Assembly: GCA_050695655.1 (NCBI GenBank)
Contig: JBOGTU010000264.1
Span: forward strand, 35 to 64,034
Source of the DNA: Chloroflexota bacterium
GTDB taxonomy: Bacteria > Chloroflexota > JAJPGV01
DNA: 64,000 nucleotides
Direction of reading: 5' to 3'
Every line of letters begins with the position of its first letter. Position 1 is the stretch's first letter. Below, piece after piece: positions 3,358 to 17,121 of this stretch. The notes below the pieces were generated by a model that did not search any database, had not been told where the DNA came from, and worked only from the letters and a program-made list of their open reading frames with translations. The translations under genes and the position numbers were made by a program.

Positions 3358-4576
3358 ACTGGCGGCACAGCGCCCCTACCTCAGAGCGCAGGGCCGCGGC
3401 CAGCCGCTCGTCCTGTGGGGCGCGCACCACCTCGCATATCCACTGGCCGATGCGCTCCATCTCAGCCGTGCCCATGCCCCGCGTGGTGGCGGCAGGGGTG
3501 CCCAGCCGGATGCCGCTGGTGACCGTGGCCGGCAGCGGGTCAAAGGGAATCTTGTTTTTGTTCACGGTGATGCCGGCACGGTCGAGCGCGGCCTCCGCGT
3601 CCCGCCCGCTCACGCCGGCGGGCGAGACGTCGACCAGCAGCAGGTGGTTGTCTGTGCCACCACTCACGAGCTTCAGCCCGCCGGCCACGAGTGCTTCGCC
3701 CAGGACGCGCGCGTTCTCCACCACCTGCCGCGCGTACGCGGCGAACGAAGGTTGCAGCGCCTCCAGGAAGCACACGGCCTTGCCGGCGATGATGTGCTCC
3801 AGCGGGCCGCCCTGGGTGTTGGGAAACACCGATGAGTCGATCTTCTGGCGCAGAGCCTCTTTGGCCAAGATGAGCCCGCCCCGCGGCCCGCGCAGCGTTT
3901 TGTGTGTGGTGGAGGTGACGATGTCCGAATAGAGGATCGGGCTGGGGTGCACCCCGGCGGCCACCAGGCCGGCGATGTGAGCCATGTCCGTCATCAGGAA
4001 CGCGCCGACGGCGTCGCACACCTGGCGCATGCGGGCGAAGTCGATGAGGCGGGGATAAGCGGATGCGCCGGCCACGATGACCCTGGGTTTGTGCGTTTGG
4101 GCCAGCCGTTCCATGTCGTCATAGTCGATGCGCTGGTCATCCCGCCGGACGCCGTAAGCCACGACGTTGAACAGCTTGCCGGAGAAGTTTGCCCGCGAGC
4201 CGTGCGTGAGATGCCCGCCCTGGTCCAGGCTGAGCCCCATGATGGTGTCGCCCGGCTTGATTACGGCCATGTAGGCGGCGTAATTCGCCTGCGCGCCCGA
4301 ATGCGGCTGCACGTTGGCGTGCTTGGCGCCGAACAACTGCTTGGCACGGTCGATGGCCAGCTGCTCGATGCCGTCCACAAACTCGCAGCCGCCATAGTAG
4401 CGGTGCCCCGGGAGCCCTTCCGCGTACTTGTTGGTGAGGATCGATCCCGCTGCCTCCAGCACCGCTGGGCTGGTGTAGTTCTCCGAAGCGATGAGCTCGA
4501 TGCCGTCGCGCATGCGCCCTTTTTCACGCTCGATCAGCGCCGCGATCGCTGGATCCGTCAGCGCAAGTGCAGCCAC
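3299..4576 (-). CDS. glyA: serine hydroxymethyltransferase
   Basis: 425 aa; ...[41 protein letters not shown]... and the PLP-lysine region [12 protein letters not shown]. Confidence 0.95.
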
Positions 4577-4648
4577 TGAAACAGTATAAGGAACGCGGTT
4601 GGGCGGCGCCGAGGTGACCTGCTGGCAGCTACGCCGTTCCTGGCGGAT

Positions 4649-5326
4649 TCAGGCGTTGCCGTAGATGGGAATCGTGGCCCCACTCACGGCGGACCAGTGG
4701 TCCGAGGCCAGGTCCAGGATCACCGCCGCGATCGCCTCCGGTGGTACCCAGTCCTCGTGCTTGGCGCCAGGCATCGCCGCGCGGTTGGCAGGAGTGTCAA
4801 TGATGCTTGGGAGCACGGCGTTGACCGTGATGCCCGTTCCTTTGAGCTCGGCGGCCAGCGTGGAAGTGAGCGCCAGCACGCCGGATTTCGATACGGCGTA
4901 GGCGCTGAAGTTCGGGCTGGGCTGCACAGCCGAGCGGCTGGACAGGTTGATGATGCGCCCAAAGCCGCCCGCCAGCATGGCGGGAATGGCTGCCTTGGAG
5001 CAGATGAAGGCGCTCTTCAAGTTGAGCACCATGAGCTGGTCCCACGTTGTTGTGTCGGCTTCGGCGACCGGCGAGCCACCGGCAAATCCACCCGCGATGT
5101 TGATCAGCGCATCCAGATGGCCGCAGCTGGCGACGATTCGCTCCAGCGCGGGAAGGACAGCGGCTTCACTGGTGACATCGGCCTCTTCCACCAGCACGCC
5201 TGCCAGCTCAACGCGCCGGCGTACCAGCCCGGCCACGCGCCAGCCCGCGGCGGCGAAGCACTCACAGACCGCGATTCCCAGGCTTCCGGCTGCGCCGGTG
5301 ACCACCACGACGCGTGACTCAGGCAT
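4649..5326 (-). CDS. SDR family NAD(P)-dependent oxidoreductase
   Basis: VVVVTGAAGSLG glycine-rich loop and the Y-x3-K catalytic motif (YAVSK); 225 aa. Confidence 0.85.
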   Translation of the reverse strand: MPESRVVVVTGAAGSLGIAVCECFAAAGWRVAGLVRRRVELAGVLVEEADVTSEAAVLPALERIVASCGHLDALINIAGGFAGGSPVAEADTTTWDQLMVLNLKSAFICSKAAIPAMLAGGFGRIINLSSRSAVQPSPNFSAYAVSKSGVLALTSTLAAELKGTGITVNAVLPSIIDTPANRAAMPGAKHEDWVPPEAIAAVILDLASDHWSAVSGATIPIYGNA

Positions 5327-5449
5327 GATTCATTCACTCCCCTTCACAGCGTTGCCTCCAGCCTCCCGACAGCGCAAAGACCGGTCCCATGCGCCTGGCA
5401 GGACCAGCGCTTCATCAGCCCACGAAGGGCTCCGCCCGGGAGACGACAA

Positions 5450-5698
5450 TCAGGCGATGCGCTTGGCGACGGCGTCCTTGAGCTCCTGAAGCTCGGGGAA
5501 CTTGCCGGCGGCGGTCTTGGAATAGATGAGGTCACCATCGATCACAAATTCGAACTGGCCCCGCCCGCCCGGCTTAAGCGCGAATTCCCCGACATCCTCC
5601 TTAAATGTCTGCAGGATTTCGAGCGCCGTCCACGCGGCGCGAGGAGTGTAGTTTCAAGGAACGCAATACGTGAGCGATAAAGAAAGCTTCTTCTGCAT
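5450..5698 (-). CDS. SelW/Rdx-family selenoprotein with in-frame UGA (Sec) in a CxxU motif; 82 aa
   Basis: Manual translation of the minus strand from ATG (complement 5696-5698) gives MQKKLSLSLTYCVPU(TGA, complement 5654-5656)NYTPRAAWTALEILQTFKEDVGEFALKPGGRGQFEFVIDGDLIYSKTAAGKFPELQELKDAVAKRIA*. This matches SelW/Rdx hallmarks YCxxU...RAAW...EL...TF...G.FE(V/F).(V/I)DG.LI(Y/H)SK...G.FP. A GC hairpin (gcgccg-cgtgga-cggcgc) starts 13 nt after the UGA. Missed by the ORF track, which splits it at the TGA. Confidence 0.75.
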
Positions 5699-5765
5699 GG
5701 CCGCAGCTTATCAAAATTCGCCGAACAAGCCTGATGGCCGGTGCCGGCAAGTCGCGGCGCACCCT

Positions 5766-7013
5766 TCATTCCTCAGGTTCGATTGCGCGCGACAAGCGCT
5801 CGCGCTCCTCGGGCGGGCGGACTTTGGCGAACATGGCCAGGAGCAGCAGATCGTAGGCGCCCTTCACGGCGCCGGCCAGCACCAGGGGCCAGCCAAAGGA
5901 CGAGAGAGCGAGCATGTAGCCCGACAGGGCCGGACCGGCGGCGCTGGCCAGGCTGCGCGGCACGGCGGTCACACCCGCCGTTGCTGGCCGCTCGGCCGGC
6001 GTGACCACGGCCATGACGTATGAGCTGCGCGTTGGCACGTCCATTTGAGAGAGCGCGCTCCGGGCCATAAGCAGAGCCAGCGCCAGCGGCAGGTTGGGCA
6101 TGAATGGCACCAGCAGCAGCAAGACGTTGGCTGGCAAGTGACTGAACACCATCGTATTGATCAGGCCAAACCGGCTGGCCAGCCGCGCGGCCGCCAGGTA
6201 TGACCCGGCGCTGAGCAGGCCGGTGACGAAGAAGATGGTCCCGGCGGCGGCCAGCGACAAATGAAAGCGCTGGAACAGCCACAGCGCCAGGAGCGACTGC
6301 GCGATGAGCCCTCCGCCGAACGCGTCGATGCTGAACAGCCCGGCGAGCGCGTACACCCTGTGCTTCGATTCCCCAAGCGGCGCTGAGGGCTGGCCGCCCA
6401 CGCCTTCAACGCTGGGCGACAGCCGCCCGTAGAGCACAAACGCCATCGTGCCGACCAGCGCGTACAGCAGGAACATGGCCTGGAGCGCCACCAGCCGGTT
6501 GCTCGATGAGCCGCCGGCGAAGAGTGCCGGCAGGCCGGCGGCCAGCGCGCCGAACGCGCCCAACAGCGAACCCACCAAGCTGTAGCGGGCAAACAACGCC
6601 GTGCGCGACTTGTCGCTCACTGTTTGCGGCAGCAGCGACTGCTCCAGCGGCAGAAACACGCTCACGTCGCCGCTGGACGGATTCAGCGTCCCCACGAAGG
6701 CCACCAGCATCAGCGGCCAGAAGCTGTGCAGGAAGGCGAATCCTACGCCGGTGCCGGCCATCAGCACCGCCGCACTTAGCAGCAGCGGCCGGCGGCGGAG
6801 CCGGTAGGCCCCCAAGGCGACCGCCAGGGTCAGCACCGCTGACCCGGCCAGCGTTGCGCTGGAGATGGCGCCAATCCGCAAAGCATTGAATCCGATCAGC
6901 GTGAGATAGGCGGGCAGCAACACGCTGATCAGGCCATCCGCGAAGGCCCGCAGCCCGCGGCCAGCCAGGATGACGGCGGCGTCCGGGCTGGCCCCAAGCA
7001 CCGGCGGCGCCAA
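5766..7013 (-). CDS. MFS transporter
   Basis: 415 aa with about 12 predicted TM segments and typical MFS loop motifs. Confidence 0.85.
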   Translation of the reverse strand: MAPPVLGASPDAAVILAGRGLRAFADGLISVLLPAYLTLIGFNALRIGAISSATLAGSAVLTLAVALGAYRLRRRPLLLSAAVLMAGTGVGFAFLHSFWPLMLVAFVGTLNPSSGDVSVFLPLEQSLLPQTVSDKSRTALFARYSLVGSLLGAFGALAAGLPALFAGGSSSNRLVALQAMFLLYALVGTMAFVLYGRLSPSVEGVGGQPSAPLGESKHRVYALAGLFSIDAFGGGLIAQSLLALWLFQRFHLSLAAAGTIFFVTGLLSAGSYLAAARLASRFGLINTMVFSHLPANVLLLLVPFMPNLPLALALLMARSALSQMDVPTRSSYVMAVVTPAERPATAGVTAVPRSLASAAGPALSGYMLALSSFGWPLVLAGAVKGAYDLLLLAMFAKVRPPEERERLSRAIEPEE

Positions 7014-9090: not shown

Positions 9091-9256
9091 AAGAGCGTGC
9101 TCCTGTGCTGGACTTCGGAGCATTATGCCATCGCGTCGCTTTGCTCGCAGGCACATGGGGACCGCGCCCGCAAGCCACATGGTCGCCTATACTGAGCTCC
9201 ATTGACGCGGACGTGAGGGTTTGGGCGTCGATTCAAGGCTGGGCGAGGAGGCCAAG

Positions 9257-10591
9257 ATGTTAGCCAAAGAAGACAACCAGATGCTGACGCAAGTCGGCCC
9301 CGGGACGCCGATGAGCGAGCTCTTCCGCCGCTTTTGGCTGCCGGCAATGCTGTCCGATGAACTGCCGGGGCCGGACTGCACTCCGGCGCGCGTGCGGCTG
9401 CTGGGTGAGGACATGGTTGCCTTCCGTGATAGTTCCGGTCGCGTCGGGGTGGTTGACGCGTATTGCCCACACCGCAACGCGCCGCTGTTCTTCGGGCGGA
9501 ACGAGGAAAACGGCCTGCGCTGTGTCTATCACGGCTGGAAGTTCGATGTGAGCGGCAAGTGTGTCGACATGCCCAACTGCTGGGAAGGTGAGACCTTCAG
9601 GCAGAAGGTCAACATCACCTCGTATCCGGTCTGGGAAGGCGGCGGCATGGTCTGGCTGTACATGGGCCCGCCCGACCGCATTCCCCCCAAGCCAGGCTAT
9701 GAATTCCTGGACGTGCCGCCCGAGAACCGTTACGTGCTTAAGTTCCTCGTCAACTGCAATTACATGCAGTCTCTGGAAAACGAGTTTGCCGAGAGCCATG
9801 CTGCCTTCCTGCATAGTACGCTTGGTACCGCGAGCACCGGATCCGGGTTCCGCGCCGTGACTGGCACCGACGTCCGCCTGTCTCAGAAGCCTACCGATCC
9901 GGCGCGCGTGACGGTGCTGGATACCGACTTTGGTCAGGTGCTGGTTCGGAAGGGCGACAACACGCCCGATGGGAAAGAGGCCTACAGTGTCGGTACGCCG
10001 TTCTGGATGCCCTGCTTCTCCGCGGCCGGTGCACTCAATGCGCCGGGCGTGACGCCGCTTAACATCAAGGTTCCGGTGGATGACGATCACATGGTCTTCT
10101 TCCGTTATAAATGGAGCGAGAAGCCGCTCACAGCAAAGGCGCTGTTCGAAATGAAGCACGGCGGCGCAGAGTTTCCAGAGCTGATCCCTGGAACCTTTAT
10201 GCCCCGGCAGAACAAGTCCAACGACTATGAGATCGACCGGGTGAAACAGCGCTTCTTCAACTACAGCGGCATCGTCAATACGCCGGTGCAGGACATCATG
10301 GTGGTGGAGAACCAGCGCGGGCCGGTCGCTGATCGGTCGCGTGAGGTGCTGGTCAGCACCGATAAGTACATCATCCAGGTGCGCCGGCGGATGCTCGACG
10401 CGGCCAAAGCGCTGAGTAGCGGCGTCGAACCCAAGGAGCCCTGGAACCCGCTGGCCTACCGCTTTCGTTCCGGCCGGGTCGAGGTGGCCCCAGGCACGTC
10501 TGTTGAGGACGCGGTCAAACCCTTGCTCGAACCCAGGCCGTTCCCAGAACAAGCTCCATCACGCGAGCGCGAGCTGGTGGCCGCCCGCTAA
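9257..10591 (+). CDS. Rieske [2Fe-2S] non-heme iron oxygenase alpha subunit (alpha-only PDO/VanA-like class), paralog 1
   Basis: Rieske CxH...CxxH motif: CPHRNAPLFFGR...CVYHGWKF. Conserved N-terminus TQVGPGTPMSELFRRFWLPAMLSDELP. A C-terminal catalytic domain is present; the ATG at 9257 was chosen over the upstream TTG. Confidence 0.9.
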   Translation: MLAKEDNQMLTQVGPGTPMSELFRRFWLPAMLSDELPGPDCTPARVRLLGEDMVAFRDSSGRVGVVDAYCPHRNAPLFFGRNEENGLRCVYHGWKFDVSGKCVDMPNCWEGETFRQKVNITSYPVWEGGGMVWLYMGPPDRIPPKPGYEFLDVPPENRYVLKFLVNCNYMQSLENEFAESHAAFLHSTLGTASTGSGFRAVTGTDVRLSQKPTDPARVTVLDTDFGQVLVRKGDNTPDGKEAYSVGTPFWMPCFSAAGALNAPGVTPLNIKVPVDDDHMVFFRYKWSEKPLTAKALFEMKHGGAEFPELIPGTFMPRQNKSNDYEIDRVKQRFFNYSGIVNTPVQDIMVVENQRGPVADRSREVLVSTDKYIIQVRRRMLDAAKALSSGVEPKEPWNPLAYRFRSGRVEVAPGTSVEDAVKPLLEPRPFPEQAPSRERELVAAR

Positions 10592-13201: not shown

Positions 13202-14251
13202 TTACTCGAACGCGAATTGCCGTAGGCCAGCCTCGTCCACGTCCAGGCCCAGGCCCGGCCTGTCCAATAGCTCCAGCCGCCCATCCGAGGCCAGCCGCGG
13301 CACCTGCTGGAACAGCGGCTCGGCCCAGGGGATGTACTCAACCGTCAGCCCGTTTGGTACCGCCGCGATCAGATGCCCCAGCACCTCCGTGGCGAGATGG
13401 GGGACGATGGGCCGGCCGTACGCTTCGGCCAGGTGTGCCACCTTGAGCGCGCCGGTAAGCCCGAGGTCGAGATCGACCATCACAATATCCACGCCGCGGT
13501 GCTGCACCAGCTCCCGAAAAGGGGCGATGGCGCGGTAGCCCTCGCCCGCGCAGGTGCGGTAGGTCAGCGCCTCCGTCACTTGACGCAGCCCGTCGTAGTC
13601 TTCTTTGGGCACCGCGTCTTCGAGCCAGTAGGGCCGCAGCGGCACCAGCGCCCGCCCAATGGCAATGGCCTCCTTCACGTCCCACAGCTGGGTGTTATCG
13701 ACCATGATGTCGATGTCATCGCCCACCGCCTCGCGGAGCGTTCGCATGTGGGCGAGCGTGGGCTCGAGGCCCTTGCCGCGAGTGTGGAATTTCATGGCTC
13801 GAAAGCCATTTTTGACGTGCTCTTCCGCGTGTCGCGCGAGCGAGATGCTGTCCTGCTCCTCGATTCTCCAGCTGGCATAGCAGTTCACCCGGTTGTTGTA
13901 GCCGCCGAGCAGCCGGTAAACAGGCAGGCCGGCGACCTTGCCTTTGATGTCCCAGCAGGCCACGTCGATGGCACTGGCGGCCCGTTCCTGAAAGCCGGAG
14001 AGGGCACCGCTTCGGCGCGGCCACTTGGCGTAGAGGGCCTCCGTGTCCAACGGGTGCAGCCCGACGGCCTGCCGCGCATAGTCGCCCAGCACCTCGGCGA
14101 AGGCCTTCACCGCCGTTGCCCCGACCCGGCTTACATACGACACGCCGTCGATCCCTTCATCCGTCTGGAGCTGCAGGACGAAGTGAATCCCTGCCCGCCC
14201 CTCGTCGTAAGGTACCCGCGCGACGCGCACGCGGTGTCCAGTGATCTTCAT
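13202..14251 (-). CDS. enolase superfamily enzyme (mandelate racemase/muconate lactonizing enzyme family)
   Basis: 349 aa; MR/MLE N-terminal capping domain and TIM-barrel motifs (KFHTRGKG, IMVDNTQLW, LEDAVPKED). Confidence 0.9.
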   Translation of the reverse strand: MKITGHRVRVARVPYDEGRAGIHFVLQLQTDEGIDGVSYVSRVGATAVKAFAEVLGDYARQAVGLHPLDTEALYAKWPRRSGALSGFQERAASAIDVACWDIKGKVAGLPVYRLLGGYNNRVNCYASWRIEEQDSISLARHAEEHVKNGFRAMKFHTRGKGLEPTLAHMRTLREAVGDDIDIMVDNTQLWDVKEAIAIGRALVPLRPYWLEDAVPKEDYDGLRQVTEALTYRTCAGEGYRAIAPFRELVQHRGVDIVMVDLDLGLTGALKVAHLAEAYGRPIVPHLATEVLGHLIAAVPNGLTVEYIPWAEPLFQQVPRLASDGRLELLDRPGLGLDVDEAGLRQFAFE

Positions 14252-14347
14252 GCGAGCAACCTCCTGACCACGTGCGATTATGCACGGGCACAGCTCTGCG
14301 GCGGGCCGGGCTTGACGGCAGGTCCGAAACGTGAAAACTACTTAGAT

Positions 14348-15706
14348 ATGCTGAGCCGCGAAGAGAACGAGTACATCACCCACATTGGACCGGGCACGCC
14401 GATGGGAGACCTGTTTCGGCAGTACTGGCTGCCGGCAGGCCTATCCTCTGAAGTCGTCGCGGACGGCGAGCCGGTAAGGTTCATGCTCCTGGGCGAGCAG
14501 CTCATTGGCTTCCGTGACAGCAACGGCCAGGTTGGCCTCGTCCAGAATGCCTGTCCCCACCGCGGAGCATCGCTGTTCTTTGGACGCAATGAAGAGTGTG
14601 GTTTGCGCTGCGTGTACCACGGCTGGAAGTTTGACGTGTCGGGCGCGTGCGTGGACATGCCGAACGAGCCGGCGGAATCCAACTTCAAGCACAAGGTGAA
14701 GGCGACCGCGTATCCCTGTCGGGACCGAGGCGGCGTCATCTGGGCCTACATGGGTCCGCGTCCGACGCCACCCGAACTCCCGGATTTCGAGGCGAACACG
14801 CTGGAAGGCTGCCAGGCGTTCGCGGCCATGCGTGACTCGAACTGGCTGCAGGCGCTGGAGGGCGACATCGACACCTGCCATACCGCCATCCTGCACAGCG
14901 GCGCCGTCCAGCCGGACGAAGTGCCGGATTGGGCCTTCGCGCACTTCATGGTTCGCAACCGGGCGCCGCGCTATGCCCTGACCGACCACCCCGCCGGCGC
15001 GACCTACACCGCCTATTGCGCAGCGCAGCCTGGCCACCTGTTCTACAGGCTGGGCCAGTACTACTTCCCCTGCTTCACATCACCGGCGCCGGGCCTGTTG
15101 GGCTACGAACGACGGGTGACGATGTGGGTTCCAATGGACGATGAACACGTCATGGTGTACAACCTGAACGCGCCGCGGACCGAGCCGGGTCAGGCGCCGC
15201 CACAGCGGCTGCGACCGAACCTTTTGCCCAATACGACGGACTGGTTTGGCCGCTTCCGGATGCCCAACCAACCGGGAAACGACTACCTGATCGACCGCGC
15301 CATGCAGCGCGGCAACAAGGGCCCGAATGGCTACACAGGCATTGTCGGCGTGGGCCAGCAGGATGCCGCGATGCAGGGGAGCGGCAGCATGGGGGCTATC
15401 GTCGACCGGACCAAAGAGCGGCTCGGCACCAGCGACGCCATGATCATCCACGTGCGCCGGCTGCTCATCCAAGCAGCGCGCACGCTGGCCGAGCAGGGCA
15501 CGCCGCCGCCGGGCGTGGACCACCCGCGGGCCTACCGGTTGCGATCGGGCGGGGTCATCCTGAAGGAGGGCGAGGACTGGGTCGCGGCGACCGGCGACTT
15601 GCAGCGCGCCTATCTCGACCACGCTGGGCTTGATCTTCGCAACAACGCCCAAGGGTATGCGCGAGCGCTCGGCCGTTCGCCGGCCACGGGGGTGCCGAGG
15701 CCCTAA
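14348..15706 (+). CDS. Rieske non-heme iron oxygenase alpha subunit, paralog 2
   Basis: MLSREENEYITHIGPGTPMGDLFRQYWLPAGLSSEV...CPHRGASLFFGR...CVYHGWKF. The upstream part of the 777-aa ORF is antisense to the MR/MLE gene and was rejected; start at ATG 14348. Confidence 0.9.
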   Translation: MLSREENEYITHIGPGTPMGDLFRQYWLPAGLSSEVVADGEPVRFMLLGEQLIGFRDSNGQVGLVQNACPHRGASLFFGRNEECGLRCVYHGWKFDVSGACVDMPNEPAESNFKHKVKATAYPCRDRGGVIWAYMGPRPTPPELPDFEANTLEGCQAFAAMRDSNWLQALEGDIDTCHTAILHSGAVQPDEVPDWAFAHFMVRNRAPRYALTDHPAGATYTAYCAAQPGHLFYRLGQYYFPCFTSPAPGLLGYERRVTMWVPMDDEHVMVYNLNAPRTEPGQAPPQRLRPNLLPNTTDWFGRFRMPNQPGNDYLIDRAMQRGNKGPNGYTGIVGVGQQDAAMQGSGSMGAIVDRTKERLGTSDAMIIHVRRLLIQAARTLAEQGTPPPGVDHPRAYRLRSGGVILKEGEDWVAATGDLQRAYLDHAGLDLRNNAQGYARALGRSPATGVPRP

Positions 15707-15783
15707 GCCGTGAATTGCCGGCAGTGTAGTGGCGACCCCATTCGGCTGGTCGGTCAGACAGCGCAGTTACTGGAGGACAAGGG

Positions 15784-17121
15784 ATGCTCACACGTGAAGA
15801 GAACGACCTTCTGACGAGGACGGGACAGGGGACGGCCATGGGTGAACTGTTCCGGCGCTTCTGGCAGCCGGTGATGCTCTCGGATGAGCTGCCGGGGCCG
15901 GACTGCACGCCGGTGCGCCTGCGCATCCTCTCCGAAGACTTGATCGCCTTCCGCGACAGTGATGGCCGCGTAGGGGTTGTGGATGCCTATTGCCCGCACC
16001 GCAACGCCCCCCTGTACTTCGGGCGTAACGAAGAGGGCGGCTTGCGCTGCGTCTATCACGGCTGGAAGTTCGATGTGGAGGGCAACTGCGTCGACCTGCC
16101 CAACTGCTGGGAAGGGGGCACCTTCAGGCAGAAGGTCCAGATTCTGGCCTACCCCACGAGCGAGAGGGCCGGCATCGTGTGGATGTACATGGGCCCAAGG
16201 GACCGCCAGCCGCCGCTGCCTGGATATCCCTTCATGGATCTGCTGCACGAGAACGTCTACGGCAACAAATTCGAAACGGCCTGCAACTACTTCCAATCCT
16301 TGGAAGGGGATCTCGATCCGAGTCACAACGCTTTCCTGCACAGCAATCTGGCCACGCGGAAGCCGGGTACCATTGTGCCGCCGATGTGGACCGGTGACCC
16401 GCCGCGGTTCTTCGAGACGGACTACGGCGTGCAGATGGTGACCGTGCGGCCAGCCGAACCCGGCAAGGTAGCGGTGAACGTAGGCCACTACACCATGACC
16501 ACGGCTGCGTCCGTCCGTGGGGGTACGGTGGTGCGGCAGATGAACTTCCGCACGCCGATAGACGACGCCAACAGCCTCTTCTTCCGCATTCGCTACAACA
16601 TGACCGGCCCCCTGGACGAGCGTGAGCTGTGGGAGGCGAAGCACGGGGAATACCTCTACCCGCCGTTAATCCCGGGCACGTTTCGATCGGTGGCTAACAA
16701 GAGCAATGACTACCTGATCGATCGTGTGCAGCAGCGCTTCTTCAACTTCAGCGGCATCAAGTCCTTCATCATCCAGGACGTAGCCGTGACGGATGATCAA
16801 CGCGGGCCAATAGCCGACCGAACCAGAGAGCGATTGGTGTCTGTGGACGAGTACATCATCCGGGCGCGCCGGCGCCTCATGCGCGCGGCGCGAGAGTTGC
16901 AGGAGGGCCGCGAGCCGGCGGCGCCGTTCCAGCCTGAGTGCCTGGGTCTGCTGCCGCTGCGCTTCACCATGGATGCTTCGGCCGATATCGAGGCGGCCGT
17001 TCGGGAACACGTCGAGGAGCAGATGGACCAGGCGCGGCAAAGGCGCCTCCCACCCGAAAGCTCGCACACATCGGCCGGCGACGCCGTACTGAGCCCGGTG
17101 GGCATTGCTGCACCAAACTGA
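15784..17121 (+). CDS. Rieske non-heme iron oxygenase alpha subunit, paralog 3
   Basis: MLTREENDLLTRTGQGTAMGELFRRFWQPVMLSDELPGPDCTPV...CPHRNAPLYFGR...CVYHGWKF. Shares most residues with paralog 1 across the N-terminal ~120 aa, including the 15-residue run GRVGVVDAYCPHRNA. Confidence 0.9.
   Translation: MLTREENDLLTRTGQGTAMGELFRRFWQPVMLSDELPGPDCTPVRLRILSEDLIAFRDSDGRVGVVDAYCPHRNAPLYFGRNEEGGLRCVYHGWKFDVEGNCVDLPNCWEGGTFRQKVQILAYPTSERAGIVWMYMGPRDRQPPLPGYPFMDLLHENVYGNKFETACNYFQSLEGDLDPSHNAFLHSNLATRKPGTIVPPMWTGDPPRFFETDYGVQMVTVRPAEPGKVAVNVGHYTMTTAASVRGGTVVRQMNFRTPIDDANSLFFRIRYNMTGPLDERELWEAKHGEYLYPPLIPGTFRSVANKSNDYLIDRVQQRFFNFSGIKSFIIQDVAVTDDQRGPIADRTRERLVSVDEYIIRARRRLMRAARELQEGREPAAPFQPECLGLLPLRFTMDASADIEAAVREHVEEQMDQARQRRLPPESSHTSAGDAVLSPVGIAAPN

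Follow-up and report, generated by a model that had tools for sequence, protein, structure and literature searches.

Bacterial SelW-like selenoproteins, which are said to have been described by Zhang, Gladyshev and co-workers, are proteins of about 75-90 aa with an N-terminal CxxU motif, in which selenocysteine (Sec) is encoded by UGA and a SECIS hairpin with a G in its small apical loop lies just downstream, inside the coding sequence. In eukaryotic Rdx selenoprotein genes the SECIS is instead a kink-turn in the 3' UTR, used together with SBP2 and eEFSec. SelW-like was already a known family in the 2005 Sargasso Sea study, where it was the most abundant one (48 Sec and 7 Cys forms; PMC1088965), and in GOS it was again the most abundant family, with 427 Sec versus 56 Cys forms (PMC2398784). 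Few or no Cys homologs of SelW-like proteins occur in organisms that use Sec, and Sec decoding was already known from the Chloroflexi (PMC1794560). Glutathione binding has been noted for SelW (PMC1088965). Bacterial SelW-like CxxU selenoproteins with exactly the features of the gene reported here have been described before (PMC1088965, PMC2398784, PMC1794560).

The gene lies on the minus strand of a 64-kb window, the whole stretch of DNA that was analysed, and its host is an uncultured, apparently aerobic member of the Chloroflexota, whereas the classic SelW-like proteins come from marine metagenomes, Deltaproteobacteria and Clostridia. It shares with the described bacterial proteins the size, the N-terminal CxxU with Sec encoded by UGA, the hairpin inside the coding sequence with a G in its small loop, and the predominance of Sec forms among close relatives, here all 80 of the 80 nearest; the window copy is without a Shine-Dalgarno motif, but nothing of substance differs. 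We put at about 0.9 the probability that this is a genuine Sec-encoding SelW-like gene, that is, an intact gene of expressed type for a member of the Rdx (SelT/SelW/SelH) thioredoxin-fold family, with Sec inserted at a UGA as residue 15. The locus is an unannotated member of a long-known family, an annotation miss rather than a discovery. It opens no new question: the CxxU motif, the SECIS inside the ORF and the prevalence of Sec over Cys had, like the family itself, all been described in 2005-2008. To call the gene cryptic, as the initial annotation did, is to overstate the case, since few selenoprotein families of prokaryotes are better known or more abundant than SelW-like (PMC1088965, PMC2398784). 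The features of the locus are:

5450..5698, minus strand: complete coding sequence of a SelW-like (Rdx family) selenoprotein, 82 residues plus terminal TGA, from translation, profile matches and substitution pattern
5696..5698, minus strand: ATG start codon, from the sequence; the same ATG starts the ortholog L001, 14 codons before the UGA
5654..5665, minus strand: redox motif C12-V-P-U15 (TGC GTT CCT TGA), from translation; aligns with the CxxC of 2fa8 and 2oka
5654..5656, minus strand: in-frame UGA, residue 15, read as Sec; TGA stands at the aligned codon in homologs
5450..5452, minus strand: terminal TGA stop of the same gene, from translation
5623..5640, minus strand: candidate bacterial SECIS hairpin, from the minimum-free-energy (MFE) fold, the bSECIS model and a clade-level compensatory change
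5635-5640, minus strand: 5' arm of the hairpin, GCGCCG
5629-5634, minus strand: loop of the hairpin, CGUGGA
5623-5628, minus strand: 3' arm of the hairpin, CGGCGC
5705..5713, minus strand: possible extended -10 element TGATAAGCT, 6 nt upstream of the ATG, which we infer

Translated on the minus strand from position 5698 to 5440, the window reads MQKKLSLSLTYCVP, a stop symbol, NYTPRAAWTALEILQTFKEDVGEFALKPGGRGQFEFVIDGDLIYSKTAAGKFPELQELKDAVAKRIA and a second stop symbol, which reproduces the 82-aa reading frame, the ATG at 5698, the TGA at 5654-5656 and the motifs quoted in the initial annotation. The frame has one internal TGA and is without frameshifts or other stops, and since an in-frame TAA lies three codons 5' of the ATG, the codon at 5696-5698 is the first possible start. 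Its GC1/GC2/GC3 values of 0.61/0.42/0.75 are the signature of genes in the source genome. The two minus-strand ORFs that had been dismissed as junk, 5344..5538 and 5542..5769, are both entered in the mechanical ORF list, in frames different from that of SelW, and the SelW frame itself appears there only as a 31-aa GTG ORF (5450..5545). An identical gene (100% at the nucleotide level) is found on two short NCBI MAG contigs which are 99.8-99.9% identical to window positions 3847-6205, namely L083 (JBOGTW010000349.1, GCA_050695675.1, 328-576) and L084 (JBOGTV010000381.1, GCA_050695635.1, 508-756). On both contigs the public gene calls show a gap between the MFS and SDR genes that flank it, and the SelW-like gene is uncalled; gene callers miss it because of the in-frame UGA.

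With U replaced by C, the translation matched the Pfam profile PF10262 (Rdx; formerly PF05169) at 77.8 bits (cut-off 22.6, E = 7e-22), with residues 8-78 on profile positions 3-73 of 74, so that the match spans the TGA. It also matched TIGR02174 ('SelT/SelW/SelH family'), a dedicated NCBIfam model with CXXU in its name (CXXU_selWTH), at 59.1 bits (cut-off 34.2), and the SelW/Rdx assignment made earlier from motifs is thereby borne out by two profiles. Against the narrower, Campylobacter-type equivalog NF041051 (SelTWH_Campy) the score was 67.3 bits, below the cut-off of 88, and the 82-aa protein is related to that equivalog group without being a member. Six solved bacterial Rdx-family proteins and human C17orf37 are homologous to residues 4-78, with a best E of 1e-16 for 2FA8, and the CxxC of the solved homologs aligns onto C-V-P-U; from this homology the protein is predicted to adopt a thioredoxin-like alpha/beta fold. 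The Cys-type Rdx proteins of known structure (Agrobacterium Atu0228, 2FA8, and 2OKA, 2OBK, 3DEX, 2OJL and 2P0G; E = 1e-16 to 3e-12 over residues 4-78) have their redox motif in the matching place and share the RAxW, EILQTF-like, G-x-FE and FP motifs. They differ in having CxxC (e.g. YCTQC), in being longer by about 20 residues and in requiring no signal for recoding. With SELENOW, SelT, SelH, SelV and Rdx12 the protein shares the family profile and, as far as sequence allows a prediction, a CxxU at the start of the first helix and the thioredoxin-like fold; a thiol-dependent redox function like that of the mammalian and other eukaryotic members is presumed.

The strongest evidence comes from the conservation of the UGA. 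A scan of one genome per species confirmed 121 relatives, the best 80 of which were retrieved. This sample carries no bias toward TGA, since the scan patterns left out the codon for Sec and Cys would be favoured in tblastn scoring. In these best 80 of the 121 relatives, TGA stands at the aligned codon in every case (80/80, tblastn), and all 80 alignments begin at query residues 1-7 and cross it, so that homology is not confined to the part downstream of the TGA. The hosts belong to the Chloroflexota (Tepidiformaceae, Dehalococcoidia, Caldilineaceae and Anaerolineales), Acidobacteriota, Planctomycetota, Acidimicrobiia, Myxococcota and others, and in the 81-member alignment C12, position 15, Y17, G47, G55, S60 and K61 are invariant. 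TGA is also the terminal stop in 33 of the 81 family genes, including the window gene, so it has not been globally reassigned.

The substitution pattern agrees with this. Between the window gene and the ortholog L001, which is 93% identical, 21 codon differences are synonymous and six are non-synonymous, split 4:1 in the 14 codons before the UGA and 17:5 downstream of it; within codons 16-51, all of them ahead of the one internal start that is possible and hence beyond the reach of any internal start codon, the ratio is 10:1. Purifying selection thus acts on both sides of the UGA, and the pattern implies that both sides are translated in the SelW frame as one protein. The earlier view that the UGA is a Sec codon with conservation continuing past it has therefore gained support from both the homologs and the selection on either side.

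In the wider family the picture includes Cys. When the 67 residues that follow the UGA served as query in a library-wide HMMER search, 354 representatives were returned; 151 were examined, namely the 150 listed and P0001 from a word-indexed protein search. Genuine Cys forms with CxxC, among them a YCVPCNY form, made up 94 of these 151, and a further 33 were calls truncated at the Sec position, that is, N-terminally truncated fragments. The UGA therefore sits exactly where distant relatives have the redox Cys, and on these alignments a UGA in that place reads as the classic signature of a selenoprotein. That word-indexed search found one relative only, itself truncated, because Sec forms are mis-called in protein databases. 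Two of the proteins matched by HMMER, P0002 (3686 aa) and P0131 (1493 aa), are very long and align with residues ~15-52 of the 67-residue query in 8-11 repeated stretches; these matches are probably repetitive or low-complexity rather than Rdx domains.

According to the bSECIS model a hairpin has a loop of 3-9 nt, a stem of 4-16 bp and a G in the first two loop positions, lies 16-37 nt from the UGA and has an MFE of at most -7.5 kcal/mol (PMC13188914, Fig. 2). The window hairpin begins 13 nt after the UGA, and both this spacing and the arm sequences gcgccg/cggcgc had been given correctly in the initial annotation. It forms in the minimum-free-energy fold and lies within all four constraints, with a 6-nt loop, a 6-bp stem, 19 nt between UGA and loop, and -10.6 kcal/mol. 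The loop CGUGGA has a G at position 2 followed by U and fits N1-G-[G/U]-N-N2-N, with N1 and N2 able to pair. Like the SECIS elements of E. coli fdhF and fdnG, it is a stem-loop directly 3' of the UGA within the consensus bSECIS limits (PMC13188914), but it has no sequence similarity to them and its stem is without the bulged U; it also departs from the E. coli and consensus bSECIS in that the stem register differs between phyla within the SelW-like family. No Rfam family matched at gathering thresholds, and at permissive thresholds the matches were chance ones only.

Taken alone, the hairpin is weak statistical evidence, being equalled in 11% of synonymous resamples. Its folding energy is unexceptional, with z = -1.04 relative to dinucleotide shuffles and z = -0.56 relative to synonymous resampling, and family-wide the mean z against synonymous-codon resampling is -0.64, no better than for another segment of the same genes. 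Global folding energy was dropped as a test for SECIS elements, being uninformative in 65% GC DNA. The proposal that the region after the UGA folds thus stood as far as the fold itself, its agreement with the bSECIS model and a compensatory change are concerned, but not as regards energy alone. In the same window (64 kb, 65% GC) the generic bSECIS criteria were passed by 10.4% of 1,658 other TGA trinucleotides, and an equally strong hairpin at a spacing of 17-22 nt followed 0.84% of background TGAs. Under a strict test that allowed no bulge, 37 of 80 family members (46%) had a qualifying hairpin at 17-22 nt, against 3.5% of background TGAs. The mean stem at the SECIS position is 5.46 bp, compared with 4.23 bp when codons are resampled synonymously and 3.94 bp at other places in the genes. 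A G is present in the loop of 80 of the 81 members, and 62 of the 81 have GU there.

A single consensus structure for the 81 sequences was tried and dropped, RNAalifold giving 3 pairs only at -1.29 kcal/mol. The window's own stem register pairs 70% of cells family-wide, and since the register is lineage-specific, register-free and clade-specific tests were used. In an alignment (A1) of the 51 nt from the UGA in 81 loci, a homologous, ungapped coding segment, the paired-column sums are 51 in the window's clade, 54 in the Planctomycetota and Caldilineaceae and 46 in the Acidimicrobiia, and the stem is bulged in the Acidobacteriota; across phyla the stem keeps a spacing of 17-22 nt, and G26 does not vary. 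With i+j = 54 as the register, changes are double-sided in five of the seven pairs, and the score for covariation (0.250 versus 0.145) is reached by 0 of 500 shuffles and lies above all slid controls. In the window's own clade (the window and L001-L008) every cell of the hairpin pairs (100%). Only two hairpin columns vary there, 18 and 33, both synonymous third positions (Arg CGC/CGG and Ala GCG/GCC), and they are paired with each other and switch together between C-G and G-C. Since this compensatory change probably goes back to a single event in evolution, we regard it as suggestive rather than decisive. The hairpin, conserved and covarying as it is, is a credible SECIS, and the conservation of the UGA carries most of the weight.

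We also looked for the Sec machinery. With E. coli SelA, SelB and SelD as probes, no selA, selB or selD was found in the 64-kb window, which holds no tRNA genes either, tRNA-Sec included, in agreement with the earlier statement that none of selA, selB, selC and selD is in it. With the same probes, selD was found immediately downstream of the SelW-like gene in L038 (8329-9351) and L040 (10322-11344) and about 4 kb from it in L078 (14465-15505), and selA plus selB were found 3-8 kb away in two Planctomycetota loci, L043 (12638-15964) and L044 (11250-14512). There is thus a recurrent genomic link between the SelW-like family and the Sec machinery, which says nothing direct about the source organism. 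In 60 related loci no tRNA-Sec was found. A scan of the window for CxxU and UxxC motifs gave no convincing second selenoprotein; a codon-usage scan for TGA-interrupted genes in the window was set aside as too noisy, the SelW TGA itself being unranked.

If the locus were no gene at all, its Rdx similarity would be fortuitous and its ORFs chance products of intergenic DNA, as might be gathered from the short overlapping ORFs that are all the ORF list offers there and from the empty space left by public gene calls on the matching contigs. This is refuted, its probability being close to nil, by the Pfam E-value and the PDB homologs (7e-22 and 1e-16), by the 121 confirmed genomic relatives, and by the coding-type substitution pattern and GC1/GC2/GC3 signature. 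Another reading is that of a pseudogene, a Cys-type Rdx gene which a TGC/TGT-to-TGA nonsense mutation has inactivated, and Cys-type relatives with the same motif context (YCVPCNY) do exist in the wider family. Such a gene would hardly share its TGA with 80 of 80 nearest homologs in several phyla, nor remain free of frameshifts and other stops, nor show purifying selection (21 versus 6) that persists past the TGA, including the 10:1 stretch unreachable from an internal start. Judged by the conserved TGA and the substitution pattern, this explanation is effectively refuted, and we regard it as extremely improbable.

A different explanation accepts the gene and has the UGA decoded otherwise, as Cys by a tRNA-Sec-like tRNA, or by near-cognate read-through as Trp, Gly or Cys, the Sec machinery being absent or lost. 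It is in keeping with the lack of Sec machinery in the 64-kb window and with the statistical weakness of the hairpin by itself, but several observations speak against it. The UGA has been kept in 80/80 relatives though a one-base change to TGC or TGT gives Cys, TGA is an ordinary stop in the window gene and 33 of 81 family members, five homolog loci have selD or selA plus selB near the gene, and the hairpin has SECIS geometry with a G/U-containing loop. Decoding other than as Sec is, in our judgement, very unlikely, and reading residue 15 as Sec is the interpretation that we prefer.

With residue 15 read as Sec, we infer dependence on SelB and selenium incorporation as follows. While the ribosome nears the UGA, the hairpin at 5623-5640 would act as a bacterial SECIS and bind SelB-GTP-Sec-tRNA(Sec), so that Sec is delivered to the A site in place of release factor 2, and the terminal TGA, which is without such a hairpin, would terminate. 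Whereas eukaryotic Rdx genes have their signal outside the reading frame, in the window gene a simple hairpin inside the ORF, starting 13 nt past the UGA, would take that role and would presumably be recognised by SelB. The product would most likely be a small thiol/selenol oxidoreductase, in which C12 and U15 may cycle between the reduced Cys-SH/Sec-SeH pair and a Cys-S-Se-Sec selenenylsulfide, the putative substrate being a disulfide or another oxidised compound that the protein reduces.

Upstream of the gene, the 19 nt before the ATG (ATTTTGATAAGCTGCGGCC; window 5699-5718, minus strand) differ from L001 by one mismatch, and farther upstream the two sequences diverge. The possible extended -10 box in this segment reads TG-n-TAAGCT and lies exactly 6 nt before the A of the ATG. 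No Shine-Dalgarno motif precedes the window gene, and an SD-like motif is found in 59 of 81 relatives. A scan for the sigma-70 consensus in the window sequence gave no promoter and no -35/-10 pair, and a terminator scan gave one terminator-like site inside the ORF, at chance frequency. The -10 box together with the missing Shine-Dalgarno motif suggests a leaderless mRNA for the SelW-like gene; if the mRNA is leaderless, nt 43-45 of the transcript would be the Sec-UGA and nt 59-76 the SECIS, and recoding would take place unusually close to the 5' end. A broader scenario, which we consider unlikely, is that an aerobic Chloroflexota lineage keeps the whole Sec machinery for a very small selenoproteome, with the SelW-like protein as its main or sole client, expressed from a leaderless mRNA, and with the SECIS register shifted across phyla (i+j = 46, 51 and 54) at a kept spacing of 17-22 nt.

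The value of recognising the gene lies mainly in annotation, standard gene callers skipping it and many of its relatives being stored as N-terminally truncated fragments. It also points to the organism as a probable user of selenium, and gives the SelW-like family, known in bacteria for about 20 years, an aerobic Chloroflexota representative.

The minus-strand neighbours of the gene are an MFS transporter (5766-7013) and, on the other side, an SDR dehydrogenase (4649-5326) followed by serine hydroxymethyltransferase. The order MFS-SelW-SDR-SHMT is common to the window and L001 only, and since synteny is limited to that ortholog the neighbourhood gives no functional clue. In 11 Acidobacteriota loci the SelW-like gene has a tRNA-Asp(GTC) gene upstream of it, encoded on the other strand, a conserved local arrangement, at a distance of ~150-260 nt in L009-L011, L013, L014, L020 and L026 and of ~1.6-3.8 kb in L012, L015, L019 and L022.

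Elsewhere in the window there are genes for subunits of cytochrome c oxidase, for a cytochrome b/c complex, for ThiC, NicO and a histidine kinase, and for three oxygenases of the Rieske/LigXa type. This gene content is apparently that of an aerobic heterotroph, with nothing related to selenium. The three oxygenases are paralogs with a Rieske [2Fe-2S] and a LigXa C-terminal domain (plus strand, 9206-10588, 13271-15703 and 15730-17118), clustered with solute-binding proteins and a cobalamin-independent-synthase-like gene, and the cluster looks like one for aromatic O-demethylation or an oxygenase cluster.
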